32,000 nucleotides of DNA from Candidatus Nitrosopumilus koreensis AR1 (GCF_000299365.1 NC_018655.1:1380001-1412000), one strand, 5' to 3'. Numbered from the stretch's first letter, positions 1,552 to 28,499 are shown. Translations and numbers: made by a program. Notes: generated from the sequence alone by a model not told the origin.

Positions 1552-3990
1552 CTAAGGGTCAGGACATCCATCAGTGTCTAAGTCACCGTCATAGTCCTCT
1601 GGTTCAAGTGGACATAAATCATATTCATTGATAATGTCATCTAGATCAGCATCATGTTTGTATCTTGATTGTTCAGGTGCAATGTCTGGACAGCCATCTT
1701 CGTCATTGTATTTGTTCCATGATTCTTTGAGGTTTGGACATAAATCAACATCATCACTTATTCCATCTTTATCATTATCAACTATCATATTTCCAAGTGG
1801 AAGAATGTCTGGGCAACCGTCATAGTCAACATATCTATTCCAAGTTTCACTTTGTGTTGGACACATATCCATTACATCAGGAACACCATCGCCATCAGAA
1901 TCAGGTTGAGTATTATCAGTGTCTGGGCAGCCATCATCATCTTGGAAGCCATTATAATTTTCTGCAACTAATGGACATTCATCATCAATATCATTAATTC
2001 CATCATTGTCTGAATCAACTACAAATGACTCAGATATAGTGTCTGGGCAGCCATCATCATCTTGGAATTTATTCCAAGTTTCTTTTGCAGTTGGACATGC
2101 ATCTATTGCATCAGGAATTCCATCTCTGTCTCTATCATGACTTAGAATGTAATTATCTGGGCAACCGTCACGATCAAGAATTCCATTATAGGTTTCAGGT
2201 TGGTTTGGACAATGATCATTGTAATCATTAATTCCATCATGGTCTGAATCTGGTAGACCTTTGTTGTCAGATACAGAATCAGGACAGCCGTCTAGGTCTT
2301 GGAATTTATTGTAAGTTTCTGGACTTAATGGACATTCATCAAGGGAATCTATTATTCCATCAAAGTCAGTATCTAAACTGGTAATAAAGTCAGGATAATC
2401 GGGGCAACCGTCTTCATCTTGGAAGCCGTTGTATCTTTCTCTTTCCAATGGACACTCATCAACTGAATCAAGTATTCCATCATAGTCAGAGTCTGCCTCA
2501 GATGGGTTATCTGGGCAACCGTCTTCATCATTATATCTATTCCAAGTTTCTGCAGTTGAAGGACACTGATCTAATTCATCTCTAATACCATCACCATCAG
2601 AATCTAAAACTGCAATATCGGGACAGCCGTCAGCGTCTTGATATCCATTTACAGTTTCAGGTTCAAGTGGACATTTATCGTTCAAATCAGTAATTCCATC
2701 ACCATCAAAATCTAATGCAGACAATCCAGATGTAGAATCAGGACAGCCGTCTAGGTCTTGGAATTTATTGTAAGTTTCTTTGGCAGTAGGACATTCATCA
2801 AGAGAATCGATAATTCCGTCTCTATCACGGTCTCCAGAACCATAAGTGTCAGGACATCCATCTCTATCTTGGAAGCCATTAAAAATTTCTGGTTGGTTTG
2901 GACACAAATCAATGTTATCAATTATTCCATCACCATCAGAGTCAGATGCTCCTTTGTTATCTGCAACAAAGTCAGGACAACCGTCTAGGTCTTGGAATTT
3001 ATTGTAAGTTTCTTTGGCATTGGGACATTGATCAATACTATTTGGAATACCATCAAGATCAGAATCACTATCACTTGAATAAGGAGGAATATCAGGACAA
3101 CCGTCTTCATCTTGGAAGCCGTTGTAACGTTCAGGTTCTAAGGGACATGCATCATCAATGTCCATTATTCTATCACCATCTGCATCATTTAGGGAACCAG
3201 TAAAAGATGGGATGGAATCAGGACAACCGTCATAGTCAGCAAATCTATTGAAAGTTTCAGGATCAGTAGGACAAATATCAAATTGGTTTGCAATGCCATC
3301 ACCATCAGTGTCAATAAAGGATGAATCTAATGCAACATCAGGACAGCCATCAGTGTCTCTATAATCATTAAACACTTCAGGTTCTGTTGGACACAAGTCT
3401 CTTGAATCTTGGATTCCATCATTATCAGTATCTACAAAAGCAGAGTCAGTAACAGAATCAGGACAACCGTCTTCATCTTGGAATCTATTGTAAGTCTCTG
3501 GACTTAATGGACATGCATCAATTGAGTCAGGAACACCGTCTCTATCACGGTCTCCAGAACCAAAAGTGTCAGGACAACCGTCTCTATCTAAAACGCCATT
3601 AAATGTTTCAGGCTGTGTTGGACACAAGTCTACAGTATCTACAAAGCCATCCCCATCAGAATCAGGCAATCCTCCTTTTCCACCTTGAGGAGAGATATCA
3701 GGACAACCGTCTTCATCTTGGAAGCCGTTGTATCGTTCTTTAAGACTTGGGCATTGATCAATATGATCTTCTATTCCATCATAGTCTTCATCATACCATG
3801 GAACAAAGTTTGATGGACATCCATCTATAGTGCTTTGATAATCTTCACGTAAATTTGGACACGCATCTACAGCGTCATCAACACCATCATTGTCCAAATC
3901 ACCTTCTACTGCAAATGCAGGATTGATGGGCATGCTGGTTAAAGTCGTTAATAATAACAATAGAAATGGTAAAGTATGTATTTTCTTCAA
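1552..3990 (-). CDS. Secreted TSP3/OmpA-like Ca-binding repeat protein, paralog B (812 aa)
   Basis: Long ORF with signal peptide MKKIHTLPFLLLLLTTLTSMPINPAFA. I count 20 DGCP(D) units, each preceded by DxDxDGxxDxxDxCP. The start codon is TTG (no in-frame ATG nearby). Its stop lies 11 nt upstream of the paralog A start, so the two are probably co-transcribed. Confidence 0.9.
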   Translation of the reverse strand: MKKIHTLPFLLLLLTTLTSMPINPAFAVEGDLDNDGVDDAVDACPNLREDYQSTIDGCPSNFVPWYDEDYDGIEDHIDQCPSLKERYNGFQDEDGCPDISPQGGKGGLPDSDGDGFVDTVDLCPTQPETFNGVLDRDGCPDTFGSGDRDRDGVPDSIDACPLSPETYNRFQDEDGCPDSVTDSAFVDTDNDGIQDSRDLCPTEPEVFNDYRDTDGCPDVALDSSFIDTDGDGIANQFDICPTDPETFNRFADYDGCPDSIPSFTGSLNDADGDRIMDIDDACPLEPERYNGFQDEDGCPDIPPYSSDSDSDLDGIPNSIDQCPNAKETYNKFQDLDGCPDFVADNKGASDSDGDGIIDNIDLCPNQPEIFNGFQDRDGCPDTYGSGDRDRDGIIDSLDECPTAKETYNKFQDLDGCPDSTSGLSALDFDGDGITDLNDKCPLEPETVNGYQDADGCPDIAVLDSDGDGIRDELDQCPSTAETWNRYNDEDGCPDNPSEADSDYDGILDSVDECPLERERYNGFQDEDGCPDYPDFITSLDTDFDGIIDSLDECPLSPETYNKFQDLDGCPDSVSDNKGLPDSDHDGINDYNDHCPNQPETYNGILDRDGCPDNYILSHDRDRDGIPDAIDACPTAKETWNKFQDDDGCPDTISESFVVDSDNDGINDIDDECPLVAENYNGFQDDDGCPDTDNTQPDSDGDGVPDVMDMCPTQSETWNRYVDYDGCPDILPLGNMIVDNDKDGISDDVDLCPNLKESWNKYNDEDGCPDIAPEQSRYKHDADLDDIINEYDLCPLEPEDYDGDLDTDGCPDP

Positions 3991-13754: not shown

Positions 13755-13829
13755 GGGCCCATAGCTCAGCATGGATAGAGTGCCGGACTTCTAATCCGAT
13801 GGTCAAGGGATCGAAGCCCTTTGGGCCCG
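13755..13829 (+). tRNA. tRNA-Arg (anticodon UCU), 75 nt, no intron, CCA not encoded
   Basis: Folded by hand. Acceptor stem GGGCCCA/TGGGCCC; D stem GCTC/GAGT; anticodon stem CCGGA/TCCGA (C27-A43 mismatch); loop CT-TCT-AA; variable loop TGGTC; T stem AAGGG/CCCTT; discriminator G. Confidence 0.9.
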
Positions 13830-13870
13830 CTTAACAAAATTATTTATTCTAACCAGAAGATGGGTTTTTT

Positions 13871-14221
13871 GTGAAAGATATAGAATTCAAATTAAATTCA
13901 ACAGATATTCATCCAAATTCCGAGATTAAAGGAACAATTACTGTGTCATATCCAGGCAGATATGACGGAGTAGTAATCAATACACAGATTTTGGATTCAA
14001 ATGAACACATCACCTACAAGTCATACAATGGAAAAACCATTTCAAATAATGTGGCAAGATTATTTATCAACAAAGACGTCATGATAGATGACAAAGCAGA
14101 ATTTACTGCAGTGATAAAATTTGAGCCAACCCAAGAATATGAAGTAAAATTCAGGGCATCAATTATTGAACAACACAAAGAAATTGAAAGTCAAATAATT
14201 TTTGCAAAGTATTCTAACTAG
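13871..14221 (+). CDS. Hypothetical 116-aa protein, predicted all-beta (weak arrestin-N/Spo0M-like pattern)
   Basis: ORF with GTG start. IEFKLNSTDIHPNSEIKGTITVSYPGRYDGVVI resembles the first strands of Spo0M/arrestin-type sandwiches, by eye only. Confidence 0.45.
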   Translation: MKDIEFKLNSTDIHPNSEIKGTITVSYPGRYDGVVINTQILDSNEHITYKSYNGKTISNNVARLFINKDVMIDDKAEFTAVIKFEPTQEYEVKFRASIIEQHKEIESQIIFAKYSN

Positions 14222-14679
14222 AATCTGCTCTTTTCTACAATAACTGAACCAGTCATCCATGGATGAGGTTGGCAATGATAATGAACTTCTTGTGGCTCAG
14301 TAAATAGAAATTCATAGGTATCTCCAGGTTTTAGAACACCAGTAGAGCCAAAATCACCACTGTACGTATCAGCATGCCTATGATCAGGGGTCACAGTGTG
14401 AGCAGTATCATCATGATTTTCCCAAATCACTTTGTTATTGATTTCTAACAACGCTTCAGCTTTGTTTGGAACGTAGTTTTCATTACCTTCTATAACAGCA
14501 CCAGGAACAATTTGTATAATTAGTTCTTTTTCAGGATTCAAAATGTGTTCAGATACAGAAGGCTTTGCCAAAGATTCTGGAAGGTAGAAAGATGTGTAAA
14601 ATACAACAGTTGCAGACATGCCAACAATTAATGCAATTAATCCTATACCATATGCATGACTTGATGTTGGACTACTCAT
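14218..14679 (-). CDS. Membrane-anchored plastocyanin-like type-1 (blue) copper protein
   Basis: N-terminal TM helix. Cu ligands are H in DDTAHTVTP and C/H/M in YHCQPHPWMTG (C-x2-H-x3-M spacing). An ATGA overlap with the cytochrome b stop suggests translational coupling. Confidence 0.85.
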   Translation of the reverse strand: MSSPTSSHAYGIGLIALIVGMSATVVFYTSFYLPESLAKPSVSEHILNPEKELIIQIVPGAVIEGNENYVPNKAEALLEINNKVIWENHDDTAHTVTPDHRHADTYSGDFGSTGVLKPGDTYEFLFTEPQEVHYHCQPHPWMTGSVIVEKSRF

Positions 14680-16265
14680 AATTTTTTCACCCCATCAAGA
14701 TCATCGGTTCCAATATTTGAGTCATTACTTGCACCAACTCCTAAATCGGATTGAGATTTTGGAGTAGGAATTTCAGGAGCCAATTCTTTTGGTTTTTCCT
14801 CTGGTTTGGTAGTATCTTCTGGAAGTTCACTTTGTTCAGATGTCTCAGGTTCTGCAAGTTTTGGTTTTTCATCAGATACTGGAACTGGTGGTGGCGGTGG
14901 AGCATTTTTTTGTTCACTTAATCCATATCTATACACATGGAAGAATGCTGCAAATACCAACAAAATAATTCCAATAAAGAACAATGATACATTCTTCATT
15001 CCTGTTAATGCTGCATTATATGCTGCAATGTTTAGAAATACTTGGAATGCTAATAATGCAATCAATACCCAATTAATCCATTTTTCAGAAAGATTGATTG
15101 TAGCCACTTTCTTTGGACCAGTACTTTTTGCAATCTTTGATTTTCTTTCTGCTTCATTTGCAAGCTTAATCATCATGTAAGTGAATCCAAATCCTAAAGG
15201 AACCATTAAGATCATTGTAGAATAGAAGAATATTGGATCAATTACCAGACGTTCTACCAATGGAACTGAGATGTCAGGTGAGATATAGAATCCCCAATAA
15301 GTTGTGACCATTATTTGTGCAAGACTAGTAATTCCAAATGCAGTGACAATTGGTCTTTCTCTCCAAGAGAATTTCTTGTATCTATCAATGAATGGAACCA
15401 ATACAAACGATATGATAAATATCAACGGCCAGAGTAACCCTGTTACAAACTTGTCATATTGTGTCCTCATGAACGCGTAAATTCCTGTCAAATACCACTC
15501 AGGAACAGTAACACCAGGCGGTACCGTAGGTTCAAACTTGAATCCCATGTCAATTGGGAACACACCTCCTGTGATGAGAATTGCACCACCAATTGCCATT
15601 ACCATAGGTACATCAAATACTAAGAACCGTGGAAAATGAACAGCCATCAATCCAAGCATAACAATTGGTAACAAGAATACATGTTGAGCATAGAATCTTA
15701 ATACAAAGTCAGAAAACCCACTACCCAACGCTGCATCACGAATTGTCGGGCCTGCAACAGGGATAGACGTTGTTAGAGACGCTGCAATACTAATTGCAAG
15801 TTCTGCTCGTTCACTAAAGATAACATCATATCCAGTAAATGCTTCTAAAATAGTTACAACACCCAAAATAACACCAGTCATCCATAATACTTCATTTCTA
15901 ATTTTGTATCTTCCACTAAAGTATTGATAATACATGTGAAGAACAGCCAAGAGTACCATTGCATTAGAGCCATGATAGTGTATGTTTCTTATATGGAAAC
16001 CAAATGGAACTTCGTCATTGATGAATTGAACACTATCCCATGCCCTATCCAAAATTGGTTGATAATAAAACATGAGTAGAGCTCCAGAAATTCCTAGAAT
16101 GATAAATACAATGAATGTTAACATTCCCAAAAATCCAAATGGACTTACAAATCTTGCAGGAAATGAAAACTTGATTGCAGTAAAGATGGTTCTATCTACA
16201 CCATCCCATAACCAATAAAGAAATTCAACTACACCGTTTCTTCTTTGCTCAAGCGAAACGGCCAT
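14676..16265 (-). CDS. Cytochrome b (complex III, fused b6/subunit IV-like) with extra C-terminal helices and a Pro/Glu/Lys-rich tail
   Basis: Heme-ligand pairs lie in IRNIHYHGSNAMVLLAVLHMY and AQHVFLLPIVMLGLMAVHF, and there are many TM helices. The track start is TTG 16271. I prefer ATG 16265, which has GGAG 9 nt upstream. Confidence 0.85.
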   Translation of the reverse strand: MAVSLEQRRNGVVEFLYWLWDGVDRTIFTAIKFSFPARFVSPFGFLGMLTFIVFIILGISGALLMFYYQPILDRAWDSVQFINDEVPFGFHIRNIHYHGSNAMVLLAVLHMYYQYFSGRYKIRNEVLWMTGVILGVVTILEAFTGYDVIFSERAELAISIAASLTTSIPVAGPTIRDAALGSGFSDFVLRFYAQHVFLLPIVMLGLMAVHFPRFLVFDVPMVMAIGGAILITGGVFPIDMGFKFEPTVPPGVTVPEWYLTGIYAFMRTQYDKFVTGLLWPLIFIISFVLVPFIDRYKKFSWRERPIVTAFGITSLAQIMVTTYWGFYISPDISVPLVERLVIDPIFFYSTMILMVPLGFGFTYMMIKLANEAERKSKIAKSTGPKKVATINLSEKWINWVLIALLAFQVFLNIAAYNAALTGMKNVSLFFIGIILLVFAAFFHVYRYGLSEQKNAPPPPPVPVSDEKPKLAEPETSEQSELPEDTTKPEEKPKELAPEIPTPKSQSDLGVGASNDSNIGTDDLDGVKKL

Positions 16266-16854
16266 ATCCAATTACTCCATTATCATTTGCATTGAAATTT
16301 GGTGGCATGATAAACACCAATCCATCTGAATCAATTTCTAAAGTTAGTTTAGGTAAAGTGTTTGAAGGTGCTGCTTGTACTGATGCAGGACCAACAAAAG
16401 CAGTTCCAGTTACCGGATCATACATACTTCCATGACAAGGACATTCTCCTCTTTTTCTTCCCTCATCAGGCCAATATTTCCATAAACACCAAAGATGTAA
16501 ACAAATCATACTATAAGCTCTAAATGCAGAGATATCATTTTTCCCACCACCTAATTCTTCAGGAAGTCGGATGAATTGCCACTTACGAAATGCTTCTGCG
16601 TCAAGTGCGGCATCCCCTGTAGCTGGATATGTAATGACTTCAGCGTGATTAACTGGATAAGTGTTAACATTTGCTTGAGTGCCATCAGGCAAAATTACAG
16701 GTACCTTTTCAAGAGAAGCCTGATTTGGGTTTGGCATGAAATTTCCAAATGGGACAAACGGAGCAAAAGCTAAACCAGTTCCTGCGGCACCCATTAACTT
16801 TAGAAAGTCTCTTCGGGATAATCCGGCAGACTTTTTTGTCCCCACCTCTGACAT
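16249..16854 (-). CDS. Rieske [2Fe-2S] protein with twin-arginine signal
   Basis: SRRDFLK Tat motif, and cluster boxes CLHLWC and CPCHGS. Confidence 0.9.
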   Translation of the reverse strand: MSEVGTKKSAGLSRRDFLKLMGAAGTGLAFAPFVPFGNFMPNPNQASLEKVPVILPDGTQANVNTYPVNHAEVITYPATGDAALDAEAFRKWQFIRLPEELGGGKNDISAFRAYSMICLHLWCLWKYWPDEGRKRGECPCHGSMYDPVTGTAFVGPASVQAAPSNTLPKLTLEIDSDGLVFIMPPNFNANDNGVIGYGRFA

Positions 16855-16897: not shown

Positions 16898-19800
16898 TTA
16901 CTTGGTAGGTTTTTGTCTAAGAATAAAGACAGAAACAATTCCGATCGCAACCCCTATTGCTATTCCTATTGTTATTCCAGTTGCCAAGGACGAATTTGTT
17001 TCTTCAGAGGAAAATACCACATCTTTTTGAATGGATTCTTTTGTAATATTTTCAGACATTTCTCTTGTCTTTGAATCAGAAACAGGTTGTTTTGATTCTG
17101 TAATTATTTCTGTATTTTGTGAGATTGTTTCCGGAGAAATATCTGTAAATTTAGCTACAAGCGTGATTGGTTCAGTTGTGAAGTTTCCTCCAAACAAGGT
17201 AGAATGCGTCAACAGAGTATAAGTGCCAGTTTGATTGATTGGCACATACAACACAGTTGATGTATCATCTTTGTTTTTTACTGGAAAAAATCCACCACCT
17301 TGACTAAATGGAGTGTTTCCTAACCAGTCAAGTGATGGCCATCCAAGAAAATGACCAAACACACCAGAAGGAACATTTGTTTGAATTATTTGTCCCAAGG
17401 GGTCCATAACAAATACGGACAGATTTGTATCACTGTTTTTCCATGAAATTTCAATTGCTGCAGAATTTACAGATTCGTTTTGTATATCAAAGTAATATTG
17501 TCTCCAGTCACCTGCCATGTAACGATTAACCATATCAAATGCACCTTTAGTGTATCCATTTCCATAAAGAATACTGTCACTTTGTTTTCCTTTGAGCATA
17601 ATTGTAGAATCATTTTCTGTTACTGGTTCTGTTATTACAAAAGATACAGGTGCATTTACTTCATGCAAGTTACTCTGGAAAGTTAAAAATCCTTGATACA
17701 CACCAGTTTCTAAATCATCGGGAGTAACCAAAGTAACATCTATTGTTGAAGAATCATTAGGTGGAACAATTATCATTTCAGATTCAGGCCACAGCATAGA
17801 CCATTTATCATCTTGATAATAACTTGCAGATATAGTATAATCCATTGATGTTGAGTTTTGATTTGTGTTTCCTAACCAGTAAGAGTATCGTGTTGGAACT
17901 GGATAAACGCCAACTAGTGGAACACCATCAAATTTTTCATCTGGTTCTGAAATTCTAATTTCCTGAACGGTTCCCCAAGAGCCTCCTCTATTGACTAGAG
18001 ATATTTCATCACTAGTAACTTTTGTATCATTGTTATTATCCAACCAATCATACAGATACAAGGAAGATATTTTGATATCATCTGCAAAAACATCCGAAGT
18101 ATTATTCAGGAATTGATTAAAAGGAAAATTTACATTAAGAACCATCAAAGAAGATTCATCAGGAACAGGATTTTTCTCATCAAAAAAATCCATTAGATCT
18201 TCATGTTGTTTGACATCAGATAGTTTTACATAGTTTGGAGCAAATGTGTCAGTTTTGTTTAGTATAGAGTCCTGCTGTCTTGGTATTGTTGTTCCATTAA
18301 ATTGAGTTTGTTTGATTAAGGAAAGAGTTTTTGATTTCACATCAATTGAAAGTGGTATATCAGTAGGGTTTTTGATTGTAAAAGTTGCAGTTGTTCTGTC
18401 CCCGGCATTTAATTGTCCTGCAAACCAACTAGTCATTGGAAAGGAATGCGAAGGAAGTTTAAACTGTTCAAACCCTACTTTTGTAGAATTAAAATTGTCA
18501 ATTATAGGGTCAAGTATACTTTTGATGTTTTCATAAGAGTCATTGTTTGATACAATAAACACTTCGTTATTTCCGTGTACATAATCCAAGGCAGACTCTG
18601 TGTTTACCAAACCAGAGCCCTGAGTAAATGGATCATTGTTCATATCAGTTGCAGTGGACATGAGGATATTTTTTATTAAGAAGGGATCATAGTCTTGAGA
18701 TTGTTTTTTCATCTCTTCAATCAATATGGCGGCACTCCCAGATACTAGTGGTGCTGCCATGCTAGTTCCTCCAAATAATGAAAAGGATTCATCTTTGGAA
18801 TTTTTTTGAGTTTTTATCACATTTGAGGGAACAAACCCATGTGCACCCATACTCATCACATCAGGTTTCGGATCACCTATAGCTGTGGGTCCTCTGCTAG
18901 AAAAATCAACTACATGATTATAGTGTTCAGTAGAATTTCCAAATCTTGGTTGTTCTTTGAATGGGCCATAACCAACAAATACATTATTTGTAGTTGCCCC
19001 AACTGCAATTCCAAATGGAGATGCATTTGGCAATCCTATTGTTCCATATCCATGTCCAGAATTTCCAGCACTAGAAACCATGACAACTCCAGGATAATCA
19101 TCATCAAGTGAATGAGGAGTTGCAAGCATACTTTGAATTAAGGACAAGATATCCATTCCAGGTGCAGCATTAAATGATGGAAAATTCGAAACACCCCAAC
19201 TATTAGAAATTATATCTACTCGAGGTTTACCAGAAAATGTCCAACCATTATTTTCATTTTCAAATCCTGCAGACCACAACCATGCATAAACAGTATCTCC
19301 AAACCATAATGCCTTTACAGGTAAAATTTTGGCATCAGGTGCAACTCCTGTTATGGAATATTTTTTCGTGTCATTATAGATATCGTATGTTTCTTGTCCA
19401 CGTGAGATAATTGACGCAGCACTGGATGTACCATGCCCCATAAAATCAGTCATAATACCAAAGAATTCACCATCAGGATCTAATGCAGGTAAAAGCGTTC
19501 CATTAATTGCATTTAATGTATCATCAATTTCAGTAGAGTTGTTTCGAATGACACCATAAACATCTAAAACTTGTGCACCAAATGTTCCTGCACTATAATC
19601 ATTTTTTCCATCAGCATTTGAATCATAAACAAGAAACTCTTTGCCACTTCCTAGAACGATTGGTTTTTCATCGGTAAAATCAAAGTCATAGTTTGGTCTT
19701 TGACCAGAAGGCAGATCAAATCTAGTATAATCCTCCCACGATGTAGTCATGTCTGGAATTATAGTATCATAAACTCCAGGAATAAAAGAATCAATTACAA

Positions 19801-20704
19801 GAACAGGTACAACTTGAATTTTTGCAAGAGGTCCGCTTAATCCCCCTTGATATATCACACCCAAGTGATACACACCACTTTTTGATTTTATGTAGTTTCG
19901 ATTGTCTTGTCCAATTTTCATATCATTTGATAGTGTCCCGTTAAAAACTGGAGAAGAGCCAATTTGAGGAAAGAATGAATTGTAAATTGGAATATCACTT
20001 CCCTTTCCCCCCTTAGAGATATCAAGAAACACCCCTTCCTTTGTTACATACGCAGAGGAGGTCATATGTGGTGGGATTGGCTTACTATAATTTCGGATTA
20101 TTTCGTTTTCATCAATGTATGCAAAAAAAGTTGCATTTGTTAGAACAATCCCTTGTCCATCAGGATCAAGCATAATTGGATGATTAATTTCATCTCGTGC
20201 AAGAGAGTGTTGAATGTCAGGATTTGAGAAATCTACCCCCGTATCCACAATTGCAACTACTATACCATTTCCTGATGCGCCATAATTTTGTTTAGCATTG
20301 TTTGAACCAGTAATTACACCAATTCTTGAAGCATCTGGAATTAAATCATTTGATGAATGAAAGTCAAGTTTAGAATCCTCAATCACATGAAGGCCTTGTA
20401 CAGATAACATTGAAGCTGATTTTTCAGATAATAATGAAACATAAAAAAATCCATTATCAGACTGAGCCCCATAAATGGAGTTATTCTTAAGATAATCAAA
20501 ATTTTGAGAGTTTGTTCCAAAAATCAAATAACGTTTGAAATTATTTTCAATAAAAAAACTATTATCTATATCTATTATTTGAGAATCAAATTCAATTTTA
20601 TTTGGTTCATCTTGCAAATATACATCATCGCCAGTAAATGCATATGAGTTTGTTAGAACACATGATAAGAGAATGATTGAAAAGAAAATAGCCACTTTGG
20701 GCAT
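16898..20704 (-). CDS. Giant membrane-anchored subtilisin-family (S8) serine protease, pyrolysin/TPPII-like architecture
   Basis: Catalytic motifs are VAIVDTGVD (Asp), HGTSSAAS (His), SNSWG (oxyanion Asn) and GGTSMAAP (Ser). Signal peptide MPKVAIFFSIILLSCVLTNSYA; C-terminal TM helix TGITIGIAIGVAIGIVSVFIL followed by RQKPTK. The track start 20794 overlaps the upstream gene. I prefer ATG 20704, which begins the signal peptide. Confidence 0.9.
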   Translation of the reverse strand: MPKVAIFFSIILLSCVLTNSYAFTGDDVYLQDEPNKIEFDSQIIDIDNSFFIENNFKRYLIFGTNSQNFDYLKNNSIYGAQSDNGFFYVSLLSEKSASMLSVQGLHVIEDSKLDFHSSNDLIPDASRIGVITGSNNAKQNYGASGNGIVVAIVDTGVDFSNPDIQHSLARDEINHPIMLDPDGQGIVLTNATFFAYIDENEIIRNYSKPIPPHMTSSAYVTKEGVFLDISKGGKGSDIPIYNSFFPQIGSSPVFNGTLSNDMKIGQDNRNYIKSKSGVYHLGVIYQGGLSGPLAKIQVVPVLVIDSFIPGVYDTIIPDMTTSWEDYTRFDLPSGQRPNYDFDFTDEKPIVLGSGKEFLVYDSNADGKNDYSAGTFGAQVLDVYGVIRNNSTEIDDTLNAINGTLLPALDPDGEFFGIMTDFMGHGTSSAASIISRGQETYDIYNDTKKYSITGVAPDAKILPVKALWFGDTVYAWLWSAGFENENNGWTFSGKPRVDIISNSWGVSNFPSFNAAPGMDILSLIQSMLATPHSLDDDYPGVVMVSSAGNSGHGYGTIGLPNASPFGIAVGATTNNVFVGYGPFKEQPRFGNSTEHYNHVVDFSSRGPTAIGDPKPDVMSMGAHGFVPSNVIKTQKNSKDESFSLFGGTSMAAPLVSGSAAILIEEMKKQSQDYDPFLIKNILMSTATDMNNDPFTQGSGLVNTESALDYVHGNNEVFIVSNNDSYENIKSILDPIIDNFNSTKVGFEQFKLPSHSFPMTSWFAGQLNAGDRTTATFTIKNPTDIPLSIDVKSKTLSLIKQTQFNGTTIPRQQDSILNKTDTFAPNYVKLSDVKQHEDLMDFFDEKNPVPDESSLMVLNVNFPFNQFLNNTSDVFADDIKISSLYLYDWLDNNNDTKVTSDEISLVNRGGSWGTVQEIRISEPDEKFDGVPLVGVYPVPTRYSYWLGNTNQNSTSMDYTISASYYQDDKWSMLWPESEMIIVPPNDSSTIDVTLVTPDDLETGVYQGFLTFQSNLHEVNAPVSFVITEPVTENDSTIMLKGKQSDSILYGNGYTKGAFDMVNRYMAGDWRQYYFDIQNESVNSAAIEISWKNSDTNLSVFVMDPLGQIIQTNVPSGVFGHFLGWPSLDWLGNTPFSQGGGFFPVKNKDDTSTVLYVPINQTGTYTLLTHSTLFGGNFTTEPITLVAKFTDISPETISQNTEIITESKQPVSDSKTREMSENITKESIQKDVVFSSEETNSSLATGITIGIAIGVAIGIVSVFILRQKPTK

Positions 20705-20735: not shown

Positions 20736-21704
20736 CTATCTTCTTCGTGCCAAAATTGCAATCTGTAATGCCACAATAATTCCAATAGATGCAATTATCG
20801 GAAAAAGCAGGGAATTTAGTTGGGATGACGCTTCACTGATAAACCCCACAGAAGTAGAAATGGTTCCTGTACTTTCATCGATTTTATTACTTGCAGTTTC
20901 CAATGTAGTACCAAACCCTTCAATTTCAGATTGTAAAACATCTAGTTCTTTGGAAGTCTCATCTAAAATTGTGTTTAGTCTAATTATTTGCTCAGATATT
21001 CCACCTAGATCTTGACTCAAAACAGTTGTTGCAGCAGAACCATGAGATGTTGTGCCCTGGCTAAATGCTACAACATGAAACACATGTGTTCCCTCTTCAA
21101 TTGGAGTGTAATCGACATAGTACAGTCCTTGATGCAAAGTCTTAAAGGAATTAGTTAAAGTAACTGACATTCCTGAAGGCAAATGAACATGTGTAGTCCC
21201 AAGTAATTCAGCGGGTTGATTTCCTATCAACAGTCCGTCACTTGTTATTTGTACAAATACTCTGATTGGTTGATTTATTGCTGCAATCTCTGGTGCAAAT
21301 ACCAATGTGTTTACAATTCTCTGTACAGGAACATTAAGGAGATCAGCAGTTGAGGAAAACTGTACATCAATTTTTTTTGATATACCATCTTGTTCGGTAC
21401 TAATTACCTCAACAGTGTATGTCCCATATGGAAAATTAGTTGATGGTTGGGGCCATGTCAATAAAGAATAATTAAAAGAGCCATCAGGATTTGTAGTTAG
21501 TTGATCAAACTTTGCGATTGTTTCATCAGGTGCAAATAACCTTAGAATCAAATTCTCTTCGGGCAAACCAGTCCCATAAACTTGAAGATTATGTGATGGT
21601 GCATAGACTTTGCTGTTTGTAGATAAATCAAGTGCTGCATAAGAGTTTGGAATTTGCATCATTAACAATATAGAAAAAAATAGAAACAAAATCTGAAATT
21701 TCAT
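20736..21704 (-). CDS. Type-I membrane protein: signal peptide, two beta-rich domains, helical stalk, C-terminal TM anchor (SlaB-like architecture)
   Basis: The signal peptide ends at NSYA/A. Beta-sandwich-like segments (YGTYTVEVIS, GLYYVDYTPIEEGTHVFHVVAF) are followed by a stalk of about 60 aa, heptad-like by eye (ISEQIIRLNTILDETSKELDVLQSEIEGF...). Then come the TM helix LLFPIIASIGIIVALQIAIL and RRR. The function is inferred only. Confidence 0.75.
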   Translation of the reverse strand: MKFQILFLFFSILLMMQIPNSYAALDLSTNSKVYAPSHNLQVYGTGLPEENLILRLFAPDETIAKFDQLTTNPDGSFNYSLLTWPQPSTNFPYGTYTVEVISTEQDGISKKIDVQFSSTADLLNVPVQRIVNTLVFAPEIAAINQPIRVFVQITSDGLLIGNQPAELLGTTHVHLPSGMSVTLTNSFKTLHQGLYYVDYTPIEEGTHVFHVVAFSQGTTSHGSAATTVLSQDLGGISEQIIRLNTILDETSKELDVLQSEIEGFGTTLETASNKIDESTGTISTSVGFISEASSQLNSLLFPIIASIGIIVALQIAILARRR

Positions 21705-21778
21705 TTTAATTTATTGCCAACCTTCTCCTAGATATTACTTCTGGAAAAATTGTCTATAACTTTCGTTAAGTAGGATTC

Positions 21779-21794
21779 AAAAAAGAAAAAAGGG
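21779..21794 (-). terminator. Oligo-T tract (CCCTTTTTTCTTTTTTG on minus strand) after the S-layer-type gene
   Basis: It starts 15 nt after the TAA at 21810-21812 and contains two T6 runs. Confidence 0.45.
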
Positions 21795-21809
21795 TAATGT
21801 GAACTAGTT

Positions 21810-24800
21810 TTATCTTACGTTGATAGTTGTACTAACTGGTGGTGATAATGCCGTTGGATTATCAACAGACTCCCAAACGAATGCAGTTGCCGTGTAGGTT
21901 CCTGCTTGAGTTGGAATCCATGATAAAGCTGGGCTGAATGATTGACCAGCAGATAGTGAACCTGTAATCCATGCTAGTGAGACTGTAACACCGTTAGCAT
22001 CCTGAATCTGTACCAAGTATGCAAATGGTTGCTCTCTATCCTGACCGTTTGCTAAGTCAGCGCTGATTTGTACCTGTTGGTCAACGGAAACAGAATCTAA
22101 GCTGTTACCGAATGCATCAACGGTTCTCAAGTTAGCAGCTGGTGCTCTCTCGAGAGGTGGTACTACAGTGCCAATTAGTGAAGTGGCAGTAATATCAAGT
22201 TCATCTGCAGTTGTGTATGGATCAGGTAGTGTATTGTCCTCATATTCTGCAGTGACAGTGTCACCTTCTGAAACTCTGAGTCTGTGACCAGATGATTCAT
22301 CAAGGGTTGTGAAGAACACAGTTCCCTCAAAGATTCCGGTTGCCTCATTAGTCTCAGTTACAGTAAGGTCAATACCTCCGGCATCGGAGTCAGACCACAC
22401 ATCGACATCGAAGTTGTCGACTGCTTCTGGATCTAAGTTCATGTCTGGATCAATAATTCTTACAACACCTGTTCCGCTAGCTGGATAACTTGCTTCAAGC
22501 CATTGGACCTCACCGATGTTCCATCTGATAAGGGCAGAGCCTACAATTGTTTCATCCTCTGAGAATTCAAAGGAGACAGTAAGTCCGTCATCATCATCAG
22601 TAGCTAAGAAGCCACCTGTTGGACCGCTACCAGTTGTGGTACCGGTTACATCGCCTGTGTTACCATCACCGTCAGCATCATGGGCGGAGAAACCTGTGAG
22701 GATTACTTCACCTGTGAAGATGCCTGTGTCAGTACCAGTTTCGACGAGTTTGTAGTTGTTGAGCTTGTGTCCTCTGGTAGAGACCTTTATTGGATCTTTA
22801 TCAGTATTTCCAATCTCATCAACTAGATCACTGTCAAAGTTGTGATCTGGTGCGACAATGGTAATGTAAACTTTGTCAGTCCATGTGTATACTTTTTGGT
22901 CAAGTTCGACAGTTGCACCGAAGTTTGAAGTGTAGATTGTCAAGTTGACATCTTCATCTTCATCTCCTACATAATCAGATCCGGATGGACCCCAGTCAGT
23001 ATACTCGAGGACAATTTCTTCTCCTCTTTCTAAGTTATCACCATCTAAAGCATCAGGAATTTCGATGACAATCTGGAAGATACCAGTAGAGTCACCTGTT
23101 TCTCTGAAGTCAGTTGGTTCTGGGTCAAATGCGGCTGCTGCGCCACTAACACCCTTGTTACCCATGGTTGTTGTTGCGGCATCAGAGTCCCATTCAATCA
23201 AGTCCAAGTCATAGGTCTCAGCAGCATCATTGTCAAGATCAAGGTCTGGCTCAATGAGTGTTAAGATCATGTCGGAACCGATAATGTATACGGATTTGTC
23301 GGATTGCAATACACCATTTCTAAGATCAAAGGTAGCAGAGTCAGTAACAGTATTTTCGGAACCTGATGCATCAGCTGGATCAGTGTATTCTACTTGGAGG
23401 ATATCTCCTTGCAAGATACAGTATTCTGTTCCAGAAGGTGCTGCGGCATCGAATCTGTTAGTGTCAGCTGTACCAGAGGTACCGTCAAGTGCAGCATATA
23501 GTGTACTATGATTTGCACATGTGGTGGATGCTGGTCCGTCGGTGAATTTAATGTCTACATCCAACTCGTAAATACCTGCATCTGGGGCGATTTCATCAAT
23601 CTCACCGAAGCTTCTAATCTTGCTAGTGGAGTTGTTATCACCAACATCAATTAGTCCAGTGTTTCTTTCTGAAGCGCCTGCATAACCGAGAACGACTTTA
23701 CTTGAACCTCTGATTACAGAGATTTTAAGTGCGTCATCTTGGTTCATTACATCTTCACCAGATGGGTTTACGTCAAAGTCTGGGTCGTTAATTCTTACGT
23801 GAATTGTTAGATCTCCTGATGGCAACTCCTCATCAGAATCAATAGTACCAGAAATGCCTGTGGCATGTATTGGGAATACTGATCTTCCGTTTGGAGATGC
23901 GTTTGCAGTAGCTGAAGATTCGCCTACGGTACCAAATGGTACGGGGTAGACGGTTCTATCAAGACTGACTGAACCAGTGTTTGCTCTAACGCCTGCAGAA
24001 TCACCGACTTCAACGATTTCACCAGAGGCATCTCTAAAGTCAACATAGTTGACTTCAATGTCGAGACCAGTGGTTGATTCGTATTGTCCTGGAGAACCAG
24101 TAGTGGTGGTATCTGCATTTCTACACCAAAATGATGGTATTTGGAAGTCACCTACAAAGACACCAGTTTCTTTACCTGTTTCAATTAGAGTAAATCCAGT
24201 TGCACCAAGTCCAGTATCTGATAGTACATCTTCTAATGATGAAGTTGCAGTTGCAGCTTTACCATCAGATGTACATGTGTTTTCATCAGGTGTTTCCCAT
24301 TGAACATCATCAAATGTGACATCTAGTAATCTACCAAGTTCACCAAAGCTCAATGTTTGAGTTGTTTTGGAACCAACCATATCTTCGGTCTTTCCAGAAC
24401 CTTGTTCGACTACGGTAAAGATGTCAATGAGGTCAGAGTCTACGTTAAGATCTAAGTCTTCTAAAGTAATTACTACAGTATCAGCTATCTTGTATGAATC
24501 TTGATTAAATGATACAACACCAGAGTGGCTTGGAGCCTCTTCTTGATCAGATACAGGAGTTACTACACCATCTGCACCCAAGTCATTATAGTTGACTCTT
24601 GGTGCGTCTTCGTCAGTAAGATCCTCAATTACGATAAATGATGGATCATCTGCGATTGGTGTGATACCAGCAAAGGTATCTGCATCCTGTATGTTAATTT
24701 GGTTAACCATGATATACTCAAGTGAACCTTCGAAGGTACTTGTGTTATCACCTGTTTCTTCGGCCTCAATTCTGATTATTTGGTTTGCAAACCTTTCGCC

Positions 24801-26951
24801 AGCCTGCACACCATCATCAGTGAAACCAAATGAGAAGAAGTCAGCAACGATTACTTCTTTGTCATCAATACTGGCAATACCATTTGTGGTATGTCCAGCA
24901 CTAGCTACGTTAAACTCGAATACGAGACCCAAGTTTTGACTAGATGGATTAGTTGATGTGAACAATTCACTATCAAGTCCATTTAATGATACATAGTCTT
25001 GCATCTTAGTAGAGTTATCTACTAGCAAGAATGCATTGTTTGAAGTACCATTGAATTTATCGTTATCAGCAAGAATTGCAGTTGTTTGGTTAATTAAGAA
25101 GATAGTAACATCTGAGCCTCCAAATGATTCAACGTTATAGTTGAAGAAGTTAAAGGCTACACCTGTTGAACCTGCTTTCTTAATTGTTTTTTGCAATTCT
25201 TCCATTGTTGTTTCCAAGTCTATTATTACCGTATCAAATCCTGCAGTTGTGTTTGCAGTCTGTGAGATTATTGCTCTTTGACTGAAAGTGTCTACTGCAG
25301 CAGTAGAAGTTATGTTATTGTGGTTTGCAGATACGGATACTAGATTATACGTTACTTGATCACCAGCAGCAGGTGAAGATGAACCAATAGTACGTTCTGT
25401 TACATTGAATATTGCAACATCTGGTGCTGTGGTAACTTCACCAATGGTGAATGGATCACCGGTTTTGAGTGCTGGAATTAAGGTTACGCTTGGGTTGTCC
25501 AAATCTAAGTCTTCATCGGCTCTGCTGTTCTTGTTTTGATCAGCATCAACAATGACTACTGGAATCTCTTCACCAGAGGTCCATTCGTCATCGACTGGCT
25601 GAATATCAATACTTGCAAAGTCGAATCCTACAAGAATAGTTTGAGGTGTTTCATTGTAATCGATTGATGCGGAGGTTCCCCTCTTTGCATTATCTGTAAT
25701 CTTTAGTACTGATTTGTCAGATTCATCATAAGTACCAAAGACACCACTGTTTGGACCTTGTTCGGTGAGGGTAACTGGGATGGAACCTATACCTAACTTA
25801 GCTGTCTCATTTGTAATACCAAATGCAGATGCATTGTTGGTACTAGCAGTTGAGTTAAGTTGGTCTAAGACAGTATCGTCATTATCCTGGATTGTCAAAA
25901 CTTTTGTGCCAGAGTTTTGTGCATCGGTGTTTAATTTCAATACACAATTGTCTTCACACATCAAGTCTGACAATGTAGTTCTCAGAGATAATGCGCTTCC
26001 ACCTGAAGCACCGTTTTCATCGAATACTTGGTAAAATGTATCAACATTGAAGGATGATGTTGTATTCTTCACGTTGGTAGCAAATGTCCAAGAGTCTTCA
26101 TCAGTTGGGTCAATGTTTAACCATAAGTCAGTAACTGTTGCGTGAACTTGTGCCAATCTTGGATATACAGCTCTGTCCAAACTCAATTCGGCAAATTGAT
26201 CAACAGTATCAAAAGTAAGTGTTGTTGATTGAACACCACCACCTTTGTTGTACTGTACGACAACGTTACCTGTTGGGTTTAGAGTATAGAGTTGAACGAA
26301 AGGCCAGGCATCATCAGCAGTAAGACCGATTTGGCCTCTGTTGACGTTTGTATTGCCTGCGTTAGGATCTTTTGCTTCTCTTACAACGTTATTGGTACCA
26401 TTAGCTGTTGATCCAGTAAGGCCAGCAAGATTACATGTTGAGGTGATTGTACCACCAGAACTGCTTCCTGTTTGTGTACCGTTACCTGATCCTACTGTAA
26501 TTGGAACTGCAATACCGTTTGTTTCAGAAGTTGAGAATCCTAAAATCGATGTACCAGATGCTGCGGAACAGAATGCACCAAAGTCCAATCCAGAACCTGC
26601 TGTTGTAGCAGTAGAGTCTGCGATTTGGGCTTGGTCTCTGTCTGCAAAGTAACCATACCAGTTACCATCAACTGCTTGAAGCATTCTCAGTTTCTTGCCG
26701 TTAACAGTTACGTCTGGTTCACCTTTTGCCTCATCGGTATCATTGATGTCACTGTCAATTACGACGACCTCAATTACTTGAGGTCCTGACATGTAGTTAT
26801 CAAACTGTGAGTTTTCTGCGGAAACAAAGAGATTGGCGTTGGCTGCATGTGCAGCAGGCATTACACCTGGAACTGCAAATGTCAGTCCACCGGCAATCAT
26901 AATTGTCATTAATGTAAGACTAGTTATTTTACGTCCTATTTCGTTATTCAT
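21810..26951 (-). CDS. Very large acidic secreted protein (1713 aa), probable S-layer protein
   Basis: Signal peptide ...AVPGVMPAAHA/ANAN and no TM anchor. The composition is T/S/D/G/V-rich and strongly acidic. A recurring domain-edge motif hxhxDxDxNxDxxxxD appears many times. G+C is visibly higher than in neighbouring genes. Size and composition match my recollection of thaumarchaeal S-layer proteins. Confidence 0.7.
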   Translation of the reverse strand: MNNEIGRKITSLTLMTIMIAGGLTFAVPGVMPAAHAANANLFVSAENSQFDNYMSGPQVIEVVVIDSDINDTDEAKGEPDVTVNGKKLRMLQAVDGNWYGYFADRDQAQIADSTATTAGSGLDFGAFCSAASGTSILGFSTSETNGIAVPITVGSGNGTQTGSSSGGTITSTCNLAGLTGSTANGTNNVVREAKDPNAGNTNVNRGQIGLTADDAWPFVQLYTLNPTGNVVVQYNKGGGVQSTTLTFDTVDQFAELSLDRAVYPRLAQVHATVTDLWLNIDPTDEDSWTFATNVKNTTSSFNVDTFYQVFDENGASGGSALSLRTTLSDLMCEDNCVLKLNTDAQNSGTKVLTIQDNDDTVLDQLNSTASTNNASAFGITNETAKLGIGSIPVTLTEQGPNSGVFGTYDESDKSVLKITDNAKRGTSASIDYNETPQTILVGFDFASIDIQPVDDEWTSGEEIPVVIVDADQNKNSRADEDLDLDNPSVTLIPALKTGDPFTIGEVTTAPDVAIFNVTERTIGSSSPAAGDQVTYNLVSVSANHNNITSTAAVDTFSQRAIISQTANTTAGFDTVIIDLETTMEELQKTIKKAGSTGVAFNFFNYNVESFGGSDVTIFLINQTTAILADNDKFNGTSNNAFLLVDNSTKMQDYVSLNGLDSELFTSTNPSSQNLGLVFEFNVASAGHTTNGIASIDDKEVIVADFFSFGFTDDGVQAGERFANQIIRIEAEETGDNTSTFEGSLEYIMVNQINIQDADTFAGITPIADDPSFIVIEDLTDEDAPRVNYNDLGADGVVTPVSDQEEAPSHSGVVSFNQDSYKIADTVVITLEDLDLNVDSDLIDIFTVVEQGSGKTEDMVGSKTTQTLSFGELGRLLDVTFDDVQWETPDENTCTSDGKAATATSSLEDVLSDTGLGATGFTLIETGKETGVFVGDFQIPSFWCRNADTTTTGSPGQYESTTGLDIEVNYVDFRDASGEIVEVGDSAGVRANTGSVSLDRTVYPVPFGTVGESSATANASPNGRSVFPIHATGISGTIDSDEELPSGDLTIHVRINDPDFDVNPSGEDVMNQDDALKISVIRGSSKVVLGYAGASERNTGLIDVGDNNSTSKIRSFGEIDEIAPDAGIYELDVDIKFTDGPASTTCANHSTLYAALDGTSGTADTNRFDAAAPSGTEYCILQGDILQVEYTDPADASGSENTVTDSATFDLRNGVLQSDKSVYIIGSDMILTLIEPDLDLDNDAAETYDLDLIEWDSDAATTTMGNKGVSGAAAAFDPEPTDFRETGDSTGIFQIVIEIPDALDGDNLERGEEIVLEYTDWGPSGSDYVGDEDEDVNLTIYTSNFGATVELDQKVYTWTDKVYITIVAPDHNFDSDLVDEIGNTDKDPIKVSTRGHKLNNYKLVETGTDTGIFTGEVILTGFSAHDADGDGNTGDVTGTTTGSGPTGGFLATDDDDGLTVSFEFSEDETIVGSALIRWNIGEVQWLEASYPASGTGVVRIIDPDMNLDPEAVDNFDVDVWSDSDAGGIDLTVTETNEATGIFEGTVFFTTLDESSGHRLRVSEGDTVTAEYEDNTLPDPYTTADELDITATSLIGTVVPPLERAPAANLRTVDAFGNSLDSVSVDQQVQISADLANGQDREQPFAYLVQIQDANGVTVSLAWITGSLSAGQSFSPALSWIPTQAGTYTATAFVWESVDNPTALSPPVSTTINVR

Positions 26952-27166: not shown

Positions 27167-27958
27167 TTATGCTTTGATCTGTTTGCCGAGGAGGCTTTTG
27201 TACAATGTTATAGCGTCGCCTTCATCTTTTGGTCCAACTACTACCGCAGATCCTTTCTTCATAAAGCTTACAGACAAATCATTAGTTCTCATCGATAACC
27301 CCAAGTCTCCTTGATTGTCTACAATGAATCCTTTTTCTTTTGCAATGTTGGTTACTTGTTCTACATTAAGATCAAATGTATCAGTTGGCGTAATGGAATA
27401 GGTTCTCTTTCCTCTATTTCTTCCACATAACTCTTCTAAAATGAATTCCTCTTTTTGTGTGACTTCAAGTTTTCCTGTTCCACAAATTGGGCATTCATCA
27501 GCTCTAAATGTTCTTGTGAAATTAAAATCAAGATTTTCTAAATCAACATGTAAAATTCTTTCAGAGAGATTTGGTTTTTTTCCAAGAATTATTTTTACAG
27601 CTTCTGCAACTTCAATTGCACCGATAATAGAAAGTATAGGAGGATGAACACCTTCAATACTACATGTTGGCATTGTATCTTCGTTTAATTCTGGAAACAT
27701 GCAAAAATAACATGCAGATTTTTTTGGCAAGATGGTAAAAGCTTGTCCAGATGTTCCAACTGCAGCACCTGTAACAAATGGAATGTTATATTTCACACAA
27801 GCTTTGTTTAATGCATATCTTGCATTAACACTATCAAGCGCGTCAATTACAACATCACATCCTTCAACAACTTCTAATGCAGTATAATCATTTATTGAAA
27901 TAGCTAGTGCTTCAATTTTACATTCAGGATTTAATTTTTGTAGTTTTTTTTGCAGCAA
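27167..27958 (-). CDS. E1-like adenylyltransferase (MoeB/ThiF/UbaA family), C-terminal two-thirds plus an unassigned 99-aa C-terminal domain; downstream part of a frameshifted gene
   Basis: LNPECKIEAL, DALDSVNARYALN, the two Zn-site pairs CYFC and CPIC, and the conserved Cys in PTCSIEGV. There is no ATG start; the frame opens only as a continuation of the upstream ORF via a +1 shift in an A8 run. Confidence 0.8.
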   Translation of the reverse strand: MLQKKLQKLNPECKIEALAISINDYTALEVVEGCDVVIDALDSVNARYALNKACVKYNIPFVTGAAVGTSGQAFTILPKKSACYFCMFPELNEDTMPTCSIEGVHPPILSIIGAIEVAEAVKIILGKKPNLSERILHVDLENLDFNFTRTFRADECPICGTGKLEVTQKEEFILEELCGRNRGKRTYSITPTDTFDLNVEQVTNIAKEKGFIVDNQGDLGLSMRTNDLSVSFMKKGSAVVVGPKDEGDAITLYKSLLGKQIKA

Positions 27959-28499
27959 CTTCTACTTTGACTTGTCCAACGTCATCTTCATCAAACATCA
28001 TTTGTCTATGCAAGTTTGATAATTCAATTACATCTCTATCAATAATTCGTAAATTTCCAACTCCCATTGTAGCTAATCTAGAAATTATTGGATGCCCTAG
28101 ACCTCCAGTTCCAACAACACATACTTTAGCATTTTTTAGTTTTAGTTGTCCACCATATCCAATTTCTTCAAGCATTACTTGTCTCGAAAATTTGTCAAGT
28201 TCTTTTGAGGATAGTTCTTCAGAGCCTCCAGCAACTGCAGGCAAAATGTAAACCTCATCACCATCTTTTAGAGGAGTTTCCATTCCAGAAGAAAATTTAG
28301 CATTCTTACCATTAATGTAGATATTAATCAAAGAACGAGGAGCCCCATTGCCTTCTAAAACTCGTCTCTTAAAATCATCACCCATCAGTTCAGAGATTTT
28401 GGCAAATGCGTCTTGCAATGAATTTGCAGACACTTCAGTTTTCTTTTCCCCCCCACCTTGATTTAGAACGGAGGGAATTGTAAATGTGATATTTGCCAT
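27924..28499 (-). CDS. MoaD/ThiS-like ubiquitin-fold domain (ending ...DGDEVYILPAVAGG) fused to the N-terminal Rossmann part of the E1-like enzyme; upstream part of a frameshifted gene
   Basis: Residues 1-93 have the beta-grasp sulfur-carrier signature with a Gly-Gly. The E1 N-terminus follows directly: LSSKELDKFSRQVMLEEIG...VVGTGGLG...DRDVIELSNLHRQ. The frame stops at 27924 after the A8 run. The ATG overlaps the ThrC-like stop (TAATG). Confidence 0.8.
   Translation of the reverse strand: MANITFTIPSVLNQGGGEKKTEVSANSLQDAFAKISELMGDDFKRRVLEGNGAPRSLINIYINGKNAKFSSGMETPLKDGDEVYILPAVAGGSEELSSKELDKFSRQVMLEEIGYGGQLKLKNAKVCVVGTGGLGHPIISRLATMGVGNLRIIDRDVIELSNLHRQMMFDEDDVGQVKVEVAAKKTTKIKS

Follow-up and report, generated by a model that had tools for sequence, protein, structure and literature searches.

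Among the closest described relatives of the system examined here are the two-component surface layers (S-layers) of the Sulfolobales, in which the genes for the lattice protein SlaA and its anchor SlaB are adjacent, the spacer between them is conserved and slaA transcripts are far more abundant (review). SlaB of Sulfolobus is a trimeric coiled coil, and the flexible, membrane-facing C-terminal domains of SlaA have been proposed to contact its immunoglobulin (Ig)-like domains. For the Nitrososphaerota, von Kügelgen et al. (Nature 2024) described a SlaB homologue, encoded in most of them, with a C-terminal transmembrane (TM) domain that potentially anchors the S-layer canopy. Here we analyse the corresponding locus (positions 20736–26951) in a 32,000-nucleotide (nt) stretch of the genome of Candidatus Nitrosopumilus koreensis AR1 (GCF_000299365.1 NC_018655.1:1380001-1412000), which we call the window and whose positions are counted from its first letter. 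On the minus strand of the window, a gene for a 1713-residue lattice protein is followed by a gene for a 322-residue SlaB-like protein.

For about 20 Nitrososphaerota, SlaA/SlaB pairs are given in Supplementary Table 1 of von Kügelgen et al., A9A4Y9/A9A4Y8 of N. maritimus among them, and the paired accessions are consecutive in N. maritimus, N. piranensis, N. koreensis and Nitrosotenuis aquarius. The same study found SlaB to be much less abundant in proteomes than the lattice protein NmSLP; a 2026 preprint names the N. maritimus gene, Nmar_1546; and a paper in mBio (2024) reported slp together with slaB in every ammonia-oxidizing archaeal (AOA) group except Nitrosocosmicus, which has neither. 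An earlier note on this DNA, made from its sequence alone, proposed such an anchor in the belief that none had been assigned in Nitrosopumilus. In this it was wrong, as all three sources attest: a candidate SlaB-type anchor in this genus is already in the literature and is no new concept. The additions made here are modest, namely the pairing of a lattice module, D9-D10, with SlaB-like genes, a conserved, attenuator-like spacer, and a probable gene unit that joins the stalk to a protease.

Results

A lattice protein without an anchor of its own

The lattice gene (21810–26951, minus strand) was identified as the ortholog of N. maritimus NmSLP/Nmar_1547 from its open reading frame (ORF), a phmmer search against the PDB and its composition. 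Its product, which ends ...VSTTINVR, matches NmSLP (8c8k_A) over the full length (E=0, 2958 bits), has a pI of 4.05, a net charge of about -198 at pH 7.4 and 20 N-x-S/T sequons. Because its sole hydrophobic segment is the N-terminal Sec signal region, the protein has no membrane anchor; since it carries neither a C-terminal hydrophobic segment nor a sorting signal, a separate tether is needed. A Pfam scan returned nothing above threshold, hence no SlaA-like domains, and a profile of the lattice C-terminus searched against the PDB matched NmSLP only. As no SlaA was recovered, we dropped the idea of homology between the two lattice proteins. Conservation along the lattice protein is strongly polarised: across 35 species the outward N-terminal residues 101–700 are 21–69% identical and the 500 membrane-facing C-terminal residues 81–93%, a pattern that fits diversifying pressure on the exposed surface.

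A short homologue of SlaB

The second gene (20736–21704, minus strand) was assigned by its ORF, profile searches and a structural model as the ortholog of N. maritimus Nmar_1546/A9A4Y8, its closest named ortholog being that of N. piranensis (93% identity). The encoded protein begins with a hydrophobic signal peptide (residues 1–23, MKFQILFLFFSILLMMQIPNSYA|A), continues with a first Ig-like domain (residues 24–118, nt 21351–21635), a linker and a second Ig-like domain (residues 131–229, nt 21018–21314), and proceeds through a heptad coiled-coil helix (residues 230–298, nt 20811–21017) to a TM helix and basic tail (residues 299–322, nt 20739–20810), all encoded on the minus strand and ending ...ILARRR. 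An AlphaFold2 model built from an alignment of 24 sequences has a mean predicted local distance difference test (pLDDT) score of 83.3, with values of mostly 84–94 in the β-strand regions; it places β-sandwich domains at residues 26–116 and 131–229 and a single unbroken helix at 233–321. The N-terminus has the properties of a Sec signal, modelled as a helix over residues 2–16 followed by a low-confidence segment, and hydropathy at the other end peaks at a Kyte-Doolittle value of 2.58 (19-residue windows starting at 293–303) just before the RRR. The layout described in the earlier note, two same-strand genes 105 nt apart encoding 1713 and 322 residues, is confirmed by the ORFs; its account of an acidic, secreted and unanchored lattice protein agrees with the pI and the purely N-terminal hydrophobicity, and its architecture for the smaller protein (signal, two β-sandwich domains, helix, C-terminal TM helix and RRR) with hydropathy and the model.

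The helix bears a clear heptad signature. Over its 66–69 residues, L, I, V, M or F occupies 76% of a/d positions and 13% of the others, a bias reached by none of 10,000 shuffles; in 71 orthologs conservation is 92% at a/d and 67% at the remaining positions, and distant homologs keep the hydrophobic pattern (70% versus 16%). The TM helix and tail are 90% conserved in the family, and the Ig domains, like the coiled-coil core and the TM helix, show strong purifying selection. The window protein has a single sequon. In one family member (P0001, 439 aa, from a 1713-bp ENA contig) the N-terminal Ig-like domain is duplicated in tandem, either a real duplication or an assembly artefact.

Profile and structure comparisons converge on SlaB. 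Aligned by hhalign with a reference family assembled from named Sulfolobales SlaB proteins, the thaumarchaeal family matched over the N-terminal Ig-like domain with 98.8% probability (E 1.4e-16). Searched against all PDB sequences, its profile found S. acidocaldarius SlaB (8qox_B) as the top match (E 5.2e-11), with collinear segments covering the N-domain, the second β-domain plus helix, and the helix plus TM segment. The same chain was the best Foldseek match of the AlphaFold2 model among 350,542 PDB chains (E 2e-10), with a low TM-score of the kind expected for a flexible multi-domain chain; the other structural neighbours were tandem Ig/MG-domain proteins, 7ptp among them. The NCBIfam SlaB model NF040788 (S-lay_SlaB_Mtsph) matches residues 1–125 (E 3.2e-8, 32.9 bits), a score below its equivalog cut-off of 700 bits. 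That shortfall is uninformative: the model takes its name from Metallosphaera, and each of 16 scanned members of the Sulfolobales SlaB family likewise scores far under the cut-off (best E 2.4e-42; P0271, 60.9 bits). An exhaustive phmmer search of 1.84 billion representatives gave 201 relatives of the 322-residue protein, including intermediates of 378–452 aa that have the same architecture and match the SlaB model at 1e-12 to 6e-36. The thaumarchaeal 'SlaB' sequences of von Kügelgen et al. align with the window protein from end to end at 56–64% identity. Pairwise BLASTP against Sulfolobus SlaB aligned only the low-complexity helical region (E 9e-5), which made profile comparison necessary, and a Pfam scan of the 322-residue protein gave nothing above threshold. 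Taken together, these profile and fold comparisons indicate that the protein, though shorter, is truly homologous to Sulfolobales SlaB and resembles it in more than architecture.

Public databases name the family otherwise. Many entries, among them P0006, P0010, P0011 and UniProt A0RXH0, are called 'methyl-accepting chemotaxis protein', and JGI names include 'tetrahydromethanopterin S-methyltransferase subunit B' for a close ortholog (P0041) and 'ATP synthase subunit b' and 'copper chaperone CopZ' for the distant P0230 and P0225. All of these names look like annotation errors prompted by the helical region.

A membrane-facing lattice module travels with SlaB-like genes

The part of the lattice protein that we regard as a candidate docking module for the SlaB-like protein is its C-terminal pair of domains, D9-D10 (residues 1480–1713; nt 21813–22514, minus strand), singled out by its conservation and by the upstream partners of distant SlaB-like genes; within it, D10 spans about residues 1596–1713 (nt 21813–22166, minus strand). 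No part of the lattice protein is better conserved than D9-D10, which shows 86–94% identity across the 35 species, against the 21–69% found at residues 101–700. At 49 paired loci of close relatives it is 84–98% identical, and the SlaB-like ectodomain 66–90%.

More telling are SlaB-like genes whose products are just 21–33% identical to the window protein, seven of which have upstream context. Six of the seven lie 1–61 nt downstream of a large same-strand gene whose product has no confident Pfam match. These partners resemble the window lattice protein essentially only at their C-termini, over window residues 1480/1604–1712, at 30–48% identity, and the shared region finishes in the motif FVWES..P.ALSP...T..V. 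The fifth of them (L092) matches D9-D10 over its last 228 aa (hhalign 99.9%), so that D9-D10 or D10 ends all five of the distant upstream partners for which DNA was available.

The cryo-electron microscopy (cryo-EM) model of NmSLP stops at residue 1616 of 1734, and its tenth domain is seen as diffuse pseudoperiplasmic density (von Kügelgen et al., Nature 2024). The minimal shared module, residues 1604–1712, corresponds to the D10 that is missing from that model. Because this region is shared with distant partners, shows the highest conservation in the lattice protein, faces the pseudoperiplasm and has a counterpart in the contact proposed between SlaA and SlaB in Sulfolobus, we infer that D10, possibly with D9, would dock the head of the SlaB-like protein. 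This would sharpen the published speculation that D10 binds unspecified molecules of the envelope.

A conserved spacer and a downstream protease

Between the two genes lies a 105-nt spacer (21705–21809, minus strand) with two elements: an oligo-T tract (TTTTTTCTTTTTT, 21779–21791), a candidate archaeal terminator or attenuator 18 nt past the lattice stop codon, and TTATAGA (21753–21759), a candidate TATA box 55 nt before the ATG of the SlaB-like gene. Oligo-T tracts are an established intrinsic termination signal of archaeal RNA polymerase. Both elements, already pointed out in the earlier note, are conserved across species: a run of five or more T occurs in 59 of 59 spacers, which hardly vary in length (median 110–111 nt in 59 species), and pairwise identity of the spacer is 0.74, whereas the third codon positions in the SlaB-like gene reach 0.58. 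Separate and unequal expression with a substoichiometric anchor, as that note suggested, fits the conserved T-tract and TATA-like box and the low SlaB abundance already published.

The next gene (16898–20704, minus strand), read from a conserved ATG at 20704, encodes a 1268-aa S8 subtilase (Pfam PF00082, 4.5e-37) with a Sec signal, catalytic D154/H424/S647 motifs, an Fn3-like domain, a C-terminal TM helix with basic tail, and 25 sequons. It begins 31 nt past the SlaB-like stop codon, with no T-tract between. To place this arrangement in context we used 80 loci, each from a distinct GTDB species, of which 79 were informative for the S8 gene and 73 for the lattice gene. The S8 gene directly follows the SlaB-like gene in 72 of 79 loci and lies within 3 kb of it in 76, four more than the directly adjacent cases, these being displaced only by a TnpB-like insertion. 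The spacer between the two genes is 30–37 nt long and contains five or more consecutive T in none of 70 species. Since it is short and lacks a T-tract, the two genes are likely to be co-transcribed, and they probably form a bicistronic stalk-plus-protease unit. No S8 gene lies downstream of the distant SlaB-like genes (0 of 7).

ORFs resembling TnpB of IS200-IS605 elements (MxLTRNYKFRLYPN...) occur beside the SlaB-like gene in L007 (1869–3047), L026 (1850–3037 and 9141–10328) and L075 (6014–7198); the two copies in L026 have identical N-termini and flank the pair of lattice and SlaB-like genes in opposite orientation.

Gene neighbourhood across species

With the lattice gene counted as a neighbour when its C-terminus lay on the same strand and no more than 400 nt upstream of the SlaB-like gene, it was found directly upstream in 60 of the 73 informative loci. 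Throughout the genus the order ThrC, ThiS-ThiF, SLP, SlaB-like, S8, Rieske-like, cytochrome b is conserved. The Nitrosopumilus loci L032, L048, L057, L058 and L069 (SlaB-like gene at about 8001) have ThrC and ThiS-ThiF upstream with no lattice gene between; ThiS-ThiF directly abuts the SlaB-like gene in L069, and in L057 a gene for a 366-aa secreted protein replaces the lattice gene. In the clade of P0234 (410 aa), known from Tara, JGI and ENA marine metagenomes, a 97-aa ORF lies about 400 nt upstream of the SlaB-like gene and a UDP-glucose dehydrogenase-like gene downstream.

Other features of the window

Downstream of the S8 gene, at 14218–16854 (minus strand), is a conserved block of three genes, whose products are a Rieske-like protein of 201 aa that bears a Tat signal and has no Pfam match at 1e-5, a cytochrome b of 531 aa and a copper protein of 153 aa that resembles plastocyanin. 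The block would be the complex III-like module of AOA, syntenic with the S-layer locus across the genus. On the other side of the lattice gene, the ThiS-ThiF fusion gene (27167–28499 overall, minus strand) is split into overlapping ORFs in different frames, at 27924–28499 and 27167–27958; among 28 sequences that contain both halves, the window being one of them, the halves share one frame in 26, which suggests a frameshift in the window genome, be it a pseudogene, a sequencing error or recoding. Calcium-binding repeats of the thrombospondin type-3 family (Pfam TSP_3, E 5e-41) make up most of an 812-aa protein encoded at 1552–3990 (minus strand), which may be another secreted envelope protein. 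The sole Rfam or ARAGORN match in the window is a tRNA-Arg(TCT) at 13755–13830 (plus strand).

Discussion

We read the locus as encoding an S-layer of two components, such as has been proposed before for Nitrosopumilus, in which a 1713-residue lattice (canopy) protein is paired with an unequally expressed, 322-residue SlaB-homolog anchor, and we put the probability of this reading at about 0.7. The SlaB-like protein would be exported by Sec, and its C-terminal TM helix would then hold it in the membrane, the RRR lying on the cytoplasmic side. Its heptad helix, 66–69 residues and about 10 nm long, would form a parallel coiled-coil stalk, with a trimer to be expected by analogy with SlaB, which would lift the two Ig-like domains toward the underside of the lattice; there they may bind the lattice protein at its flexible C-terminal module on the membrane side, D10 or possibly D9-D10. 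The oligo-T tract after the lattice gene would terminate most transcripts, and the anchor and S8 subtilase genes would be expressed at a lower level, through read-through, the anchor gene's own TATA-like promoter or both, leaving the anchor substoichiometric. The earlier note had likewise called the 322-residue protein a SlaB-type stalk or anchor and had named structure and coiled-coil prediction, synteny and phyletic co-occurrence as ways to check this. The first gives a model with a continuous, heptad-patterned helix, the second an adjacent lattice gene in most species loci and a large gene beside all but one of the distant SlaB-like genes with upstream context, and the third the joint presence and joint absence of slp and slaB across AOA (mBio 2024). 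With hhalign, the PDB profile search and Foldseek these support the identification; anchoring itself is inferred.

More tentatively, and with rather less confidence than we would need to prefer it, we suggest that D10 with D9 may constitute an ancient module dedicated to docking the SlaB-type Ig head, the two being maintained across the Nitrososphaerota and related uncultured lineages even where the remainder of the canopy protein is no longer recognisable, and that in the Nitrosopumilaceae the stalk gene may form a bicistron with the gene for a membrane-anchored S8 protease that acts in the pseudoperiplasm, in S-layer maturation or turnover or in peptide scavenging.

Several points weigh against a lattice anchor. 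No homology to SlaA is detectable in the lattice partner; being of NmSLP type, it makes the system a SlaB-like one with a non-SlaA canopy. The proposed partners are both acidic (net charges of -6.5 for D10, -6.4 for Ig1 and -4.3 for Ig2), so that a simple electrostatic contact, as suggested for SlaA D6 and SlaB, is unlikely unless bridged by cations. Maps of N. maritimus from cryo-electron tomography and cryo-EM contain no ordered stalk density (Nature 2024). The gene neighbourhood, too, has exceptions. Thirteen of the 73 loci have no adjacent lattice gene, several of them having a ThiF-like gene that abuts the SlaB-like gene, and the P0234 loci (L088-L091) have no large gene upstream. Because the whole neighbourhood is syntenic within the genus, close-range synteny alone is weak evidence.

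The strongest alternative, which we nevertheless consider unlikely, is that the main task of the SlaB-like protein lies in the pseudoperiplasm, as a stalk or scaffold for the presumably co-transcribed S8 subtilase, which it might position or stabilise. It would then not be the chief tether of the lattice, which would be held by binding of D10 to other envelope molecules. Linkage to the S8 gene is indeed tighter than linkage to the lattice gene, the spacer between the SlaB-like and S8 genes is fixed in length and free of T-tracts, and L032, L048, L057, L058 and L069 retain the SlaB-like and S8 genes with no lattice gene at the locus. A precedent exists in the subtilisin STABLE, which is bound to the coiled-coil stalk of the S-layer protein tetrabrachion. 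The anchor is low in abundance, moreover, and von Kügelgen et al. themselves speculate that D10 binds other molecules. However, no S8 gene stands beside any distant SlaB-like gene examined, whereas a large gene bearing D10 does; the S8 protein has a TM anchor of its own and does not need a stalk; and SlaB, its homolog, has an established role in anchoring a lattice. Neither role precludes the other, and scaffold and anchor could coexist.

More doubtful still is the suggestion that the protein is a generic tail-anchored, Ig-like surface protein, an adhesin or minor envelope component of SlaB ancestry with no specific role in the lattice, whose position is simply inherited gene order. Conservation of the whole region within the genus makes local synteny unspecific, and no stalk density has been reported. 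What speaks against this reading is that adjacency to a D10-bearing gene persists at 21–33% identity, where other neighbours are lost, that presence and absence of slaB track slp across AOA, and that the Ig domains, coiled-coil core and TM helix are all under strong purifying selection. The identity given by NCBI ortholog names, a methyl-accepting chemotaxis protein, has next to no probability and is refuted by domain content and topology: it is backed by source annotation alone, if in many NCBI and UniRef entries, and most likely derives from the Ser/Thr/Ala-rich helical region, and there was no match to MCPsignal (PF00015), HAMP or any chemoreceptor Pfam family in the window protein (E<=1) or in 24 family members (E<=0.01), while the predicted topology (cleavable signal, extracellular protein, single C-terminal TM helix, three-residue cytoplasmic tail) is wrong for a chemoreceptor.

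The way in which the ammonium-concentrating S-layer is kept at a set height above the membrane determines the geometry of the pseudoperiplasmic compartment in which marine AOA oxidize ammonia. If the lattice-anchor reading holds, D9-D10 and the SlaB-like Ig domains would be a specific, conserved module pair, the T-tract a specific attenuator-like candidate for controlling stoichiometry, and the subtilase a conserved protease partner.

The nearest described counterpart is Nmar_1546 (A9A4Y8) of N. maritimus, which belongs to the same family and has the same locus arrangement, the window gene being the ortholog in another species; the charges listed in the Nature 2024 study resemble those computed for the window (-198.5 for the lattice protein, -15.5 for the SlaB-like protein). 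That study gives the assignment, the C-terminal TM domain and the low abundance; co-conservation of D10, the spacer and the protease linkage were not analysed there. SlaB of S. acidocaldarius (Saci_2354, 8QOX chain B) is alike in its signal, N-terminal Ig-like domains, Ser/Thr-rich heptad coiled coil and C-terminal TM helix with basic tail, and its Sulfolobales relatives are likewise encoded immediately downstream of a far more strongly expressed lattice gene on the same strand. They are longer, however, at 396–475 aa against 322, and S. acidocaldarius SlaB has a helix of 132 residues against 66–69 and three β-domains, including an extra middle one, where the window protein has two. Sulfolobales SlaB is described as highly glycosylated (review), whereas the window protein has its one sequon. 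The partner differs as well, SlaA in the Sulfolobales and in the window an Ig-array p6 protein without detectable similarity to SlaA.

Outside these lineages, the csg lattice of Haloferax volcanii, like other single-component archaeal S-layers, is similar in its tandem Ig-like domains and hexagonal symmetry, and 7ptp is among the structural neighbours of the SlaB-like model. The tether of csg is a lipid modification at its own C-terminus (PGF-CTERM/ArtA); the C-terminus of the window's lattice protein carries no sorting signal. The tetrabrachion-STABLE complex of Staphylothermus marinus offers a parallel for the downstream gene, with a membrane-anchored coiled-coil stalk beneath a canopy and an associated protease of the subtilisin family, just as a subtilase gene adjoins the stalk gene in the window. 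In tetrabrachion, stalk and arms are one polypeptide, the stalk is a right-handed undecad tetramer and the protease binds it directly; in the window, the stalk would be a heptad protein in its own right, the protease carries a TM anchor itself and gene linkage is what points to their association. If that association is real, the stalk-protease unit of the Nitrosopumilaceae would be the second S-layer stalk linked to a protease, after Staphylothermus STABLE.

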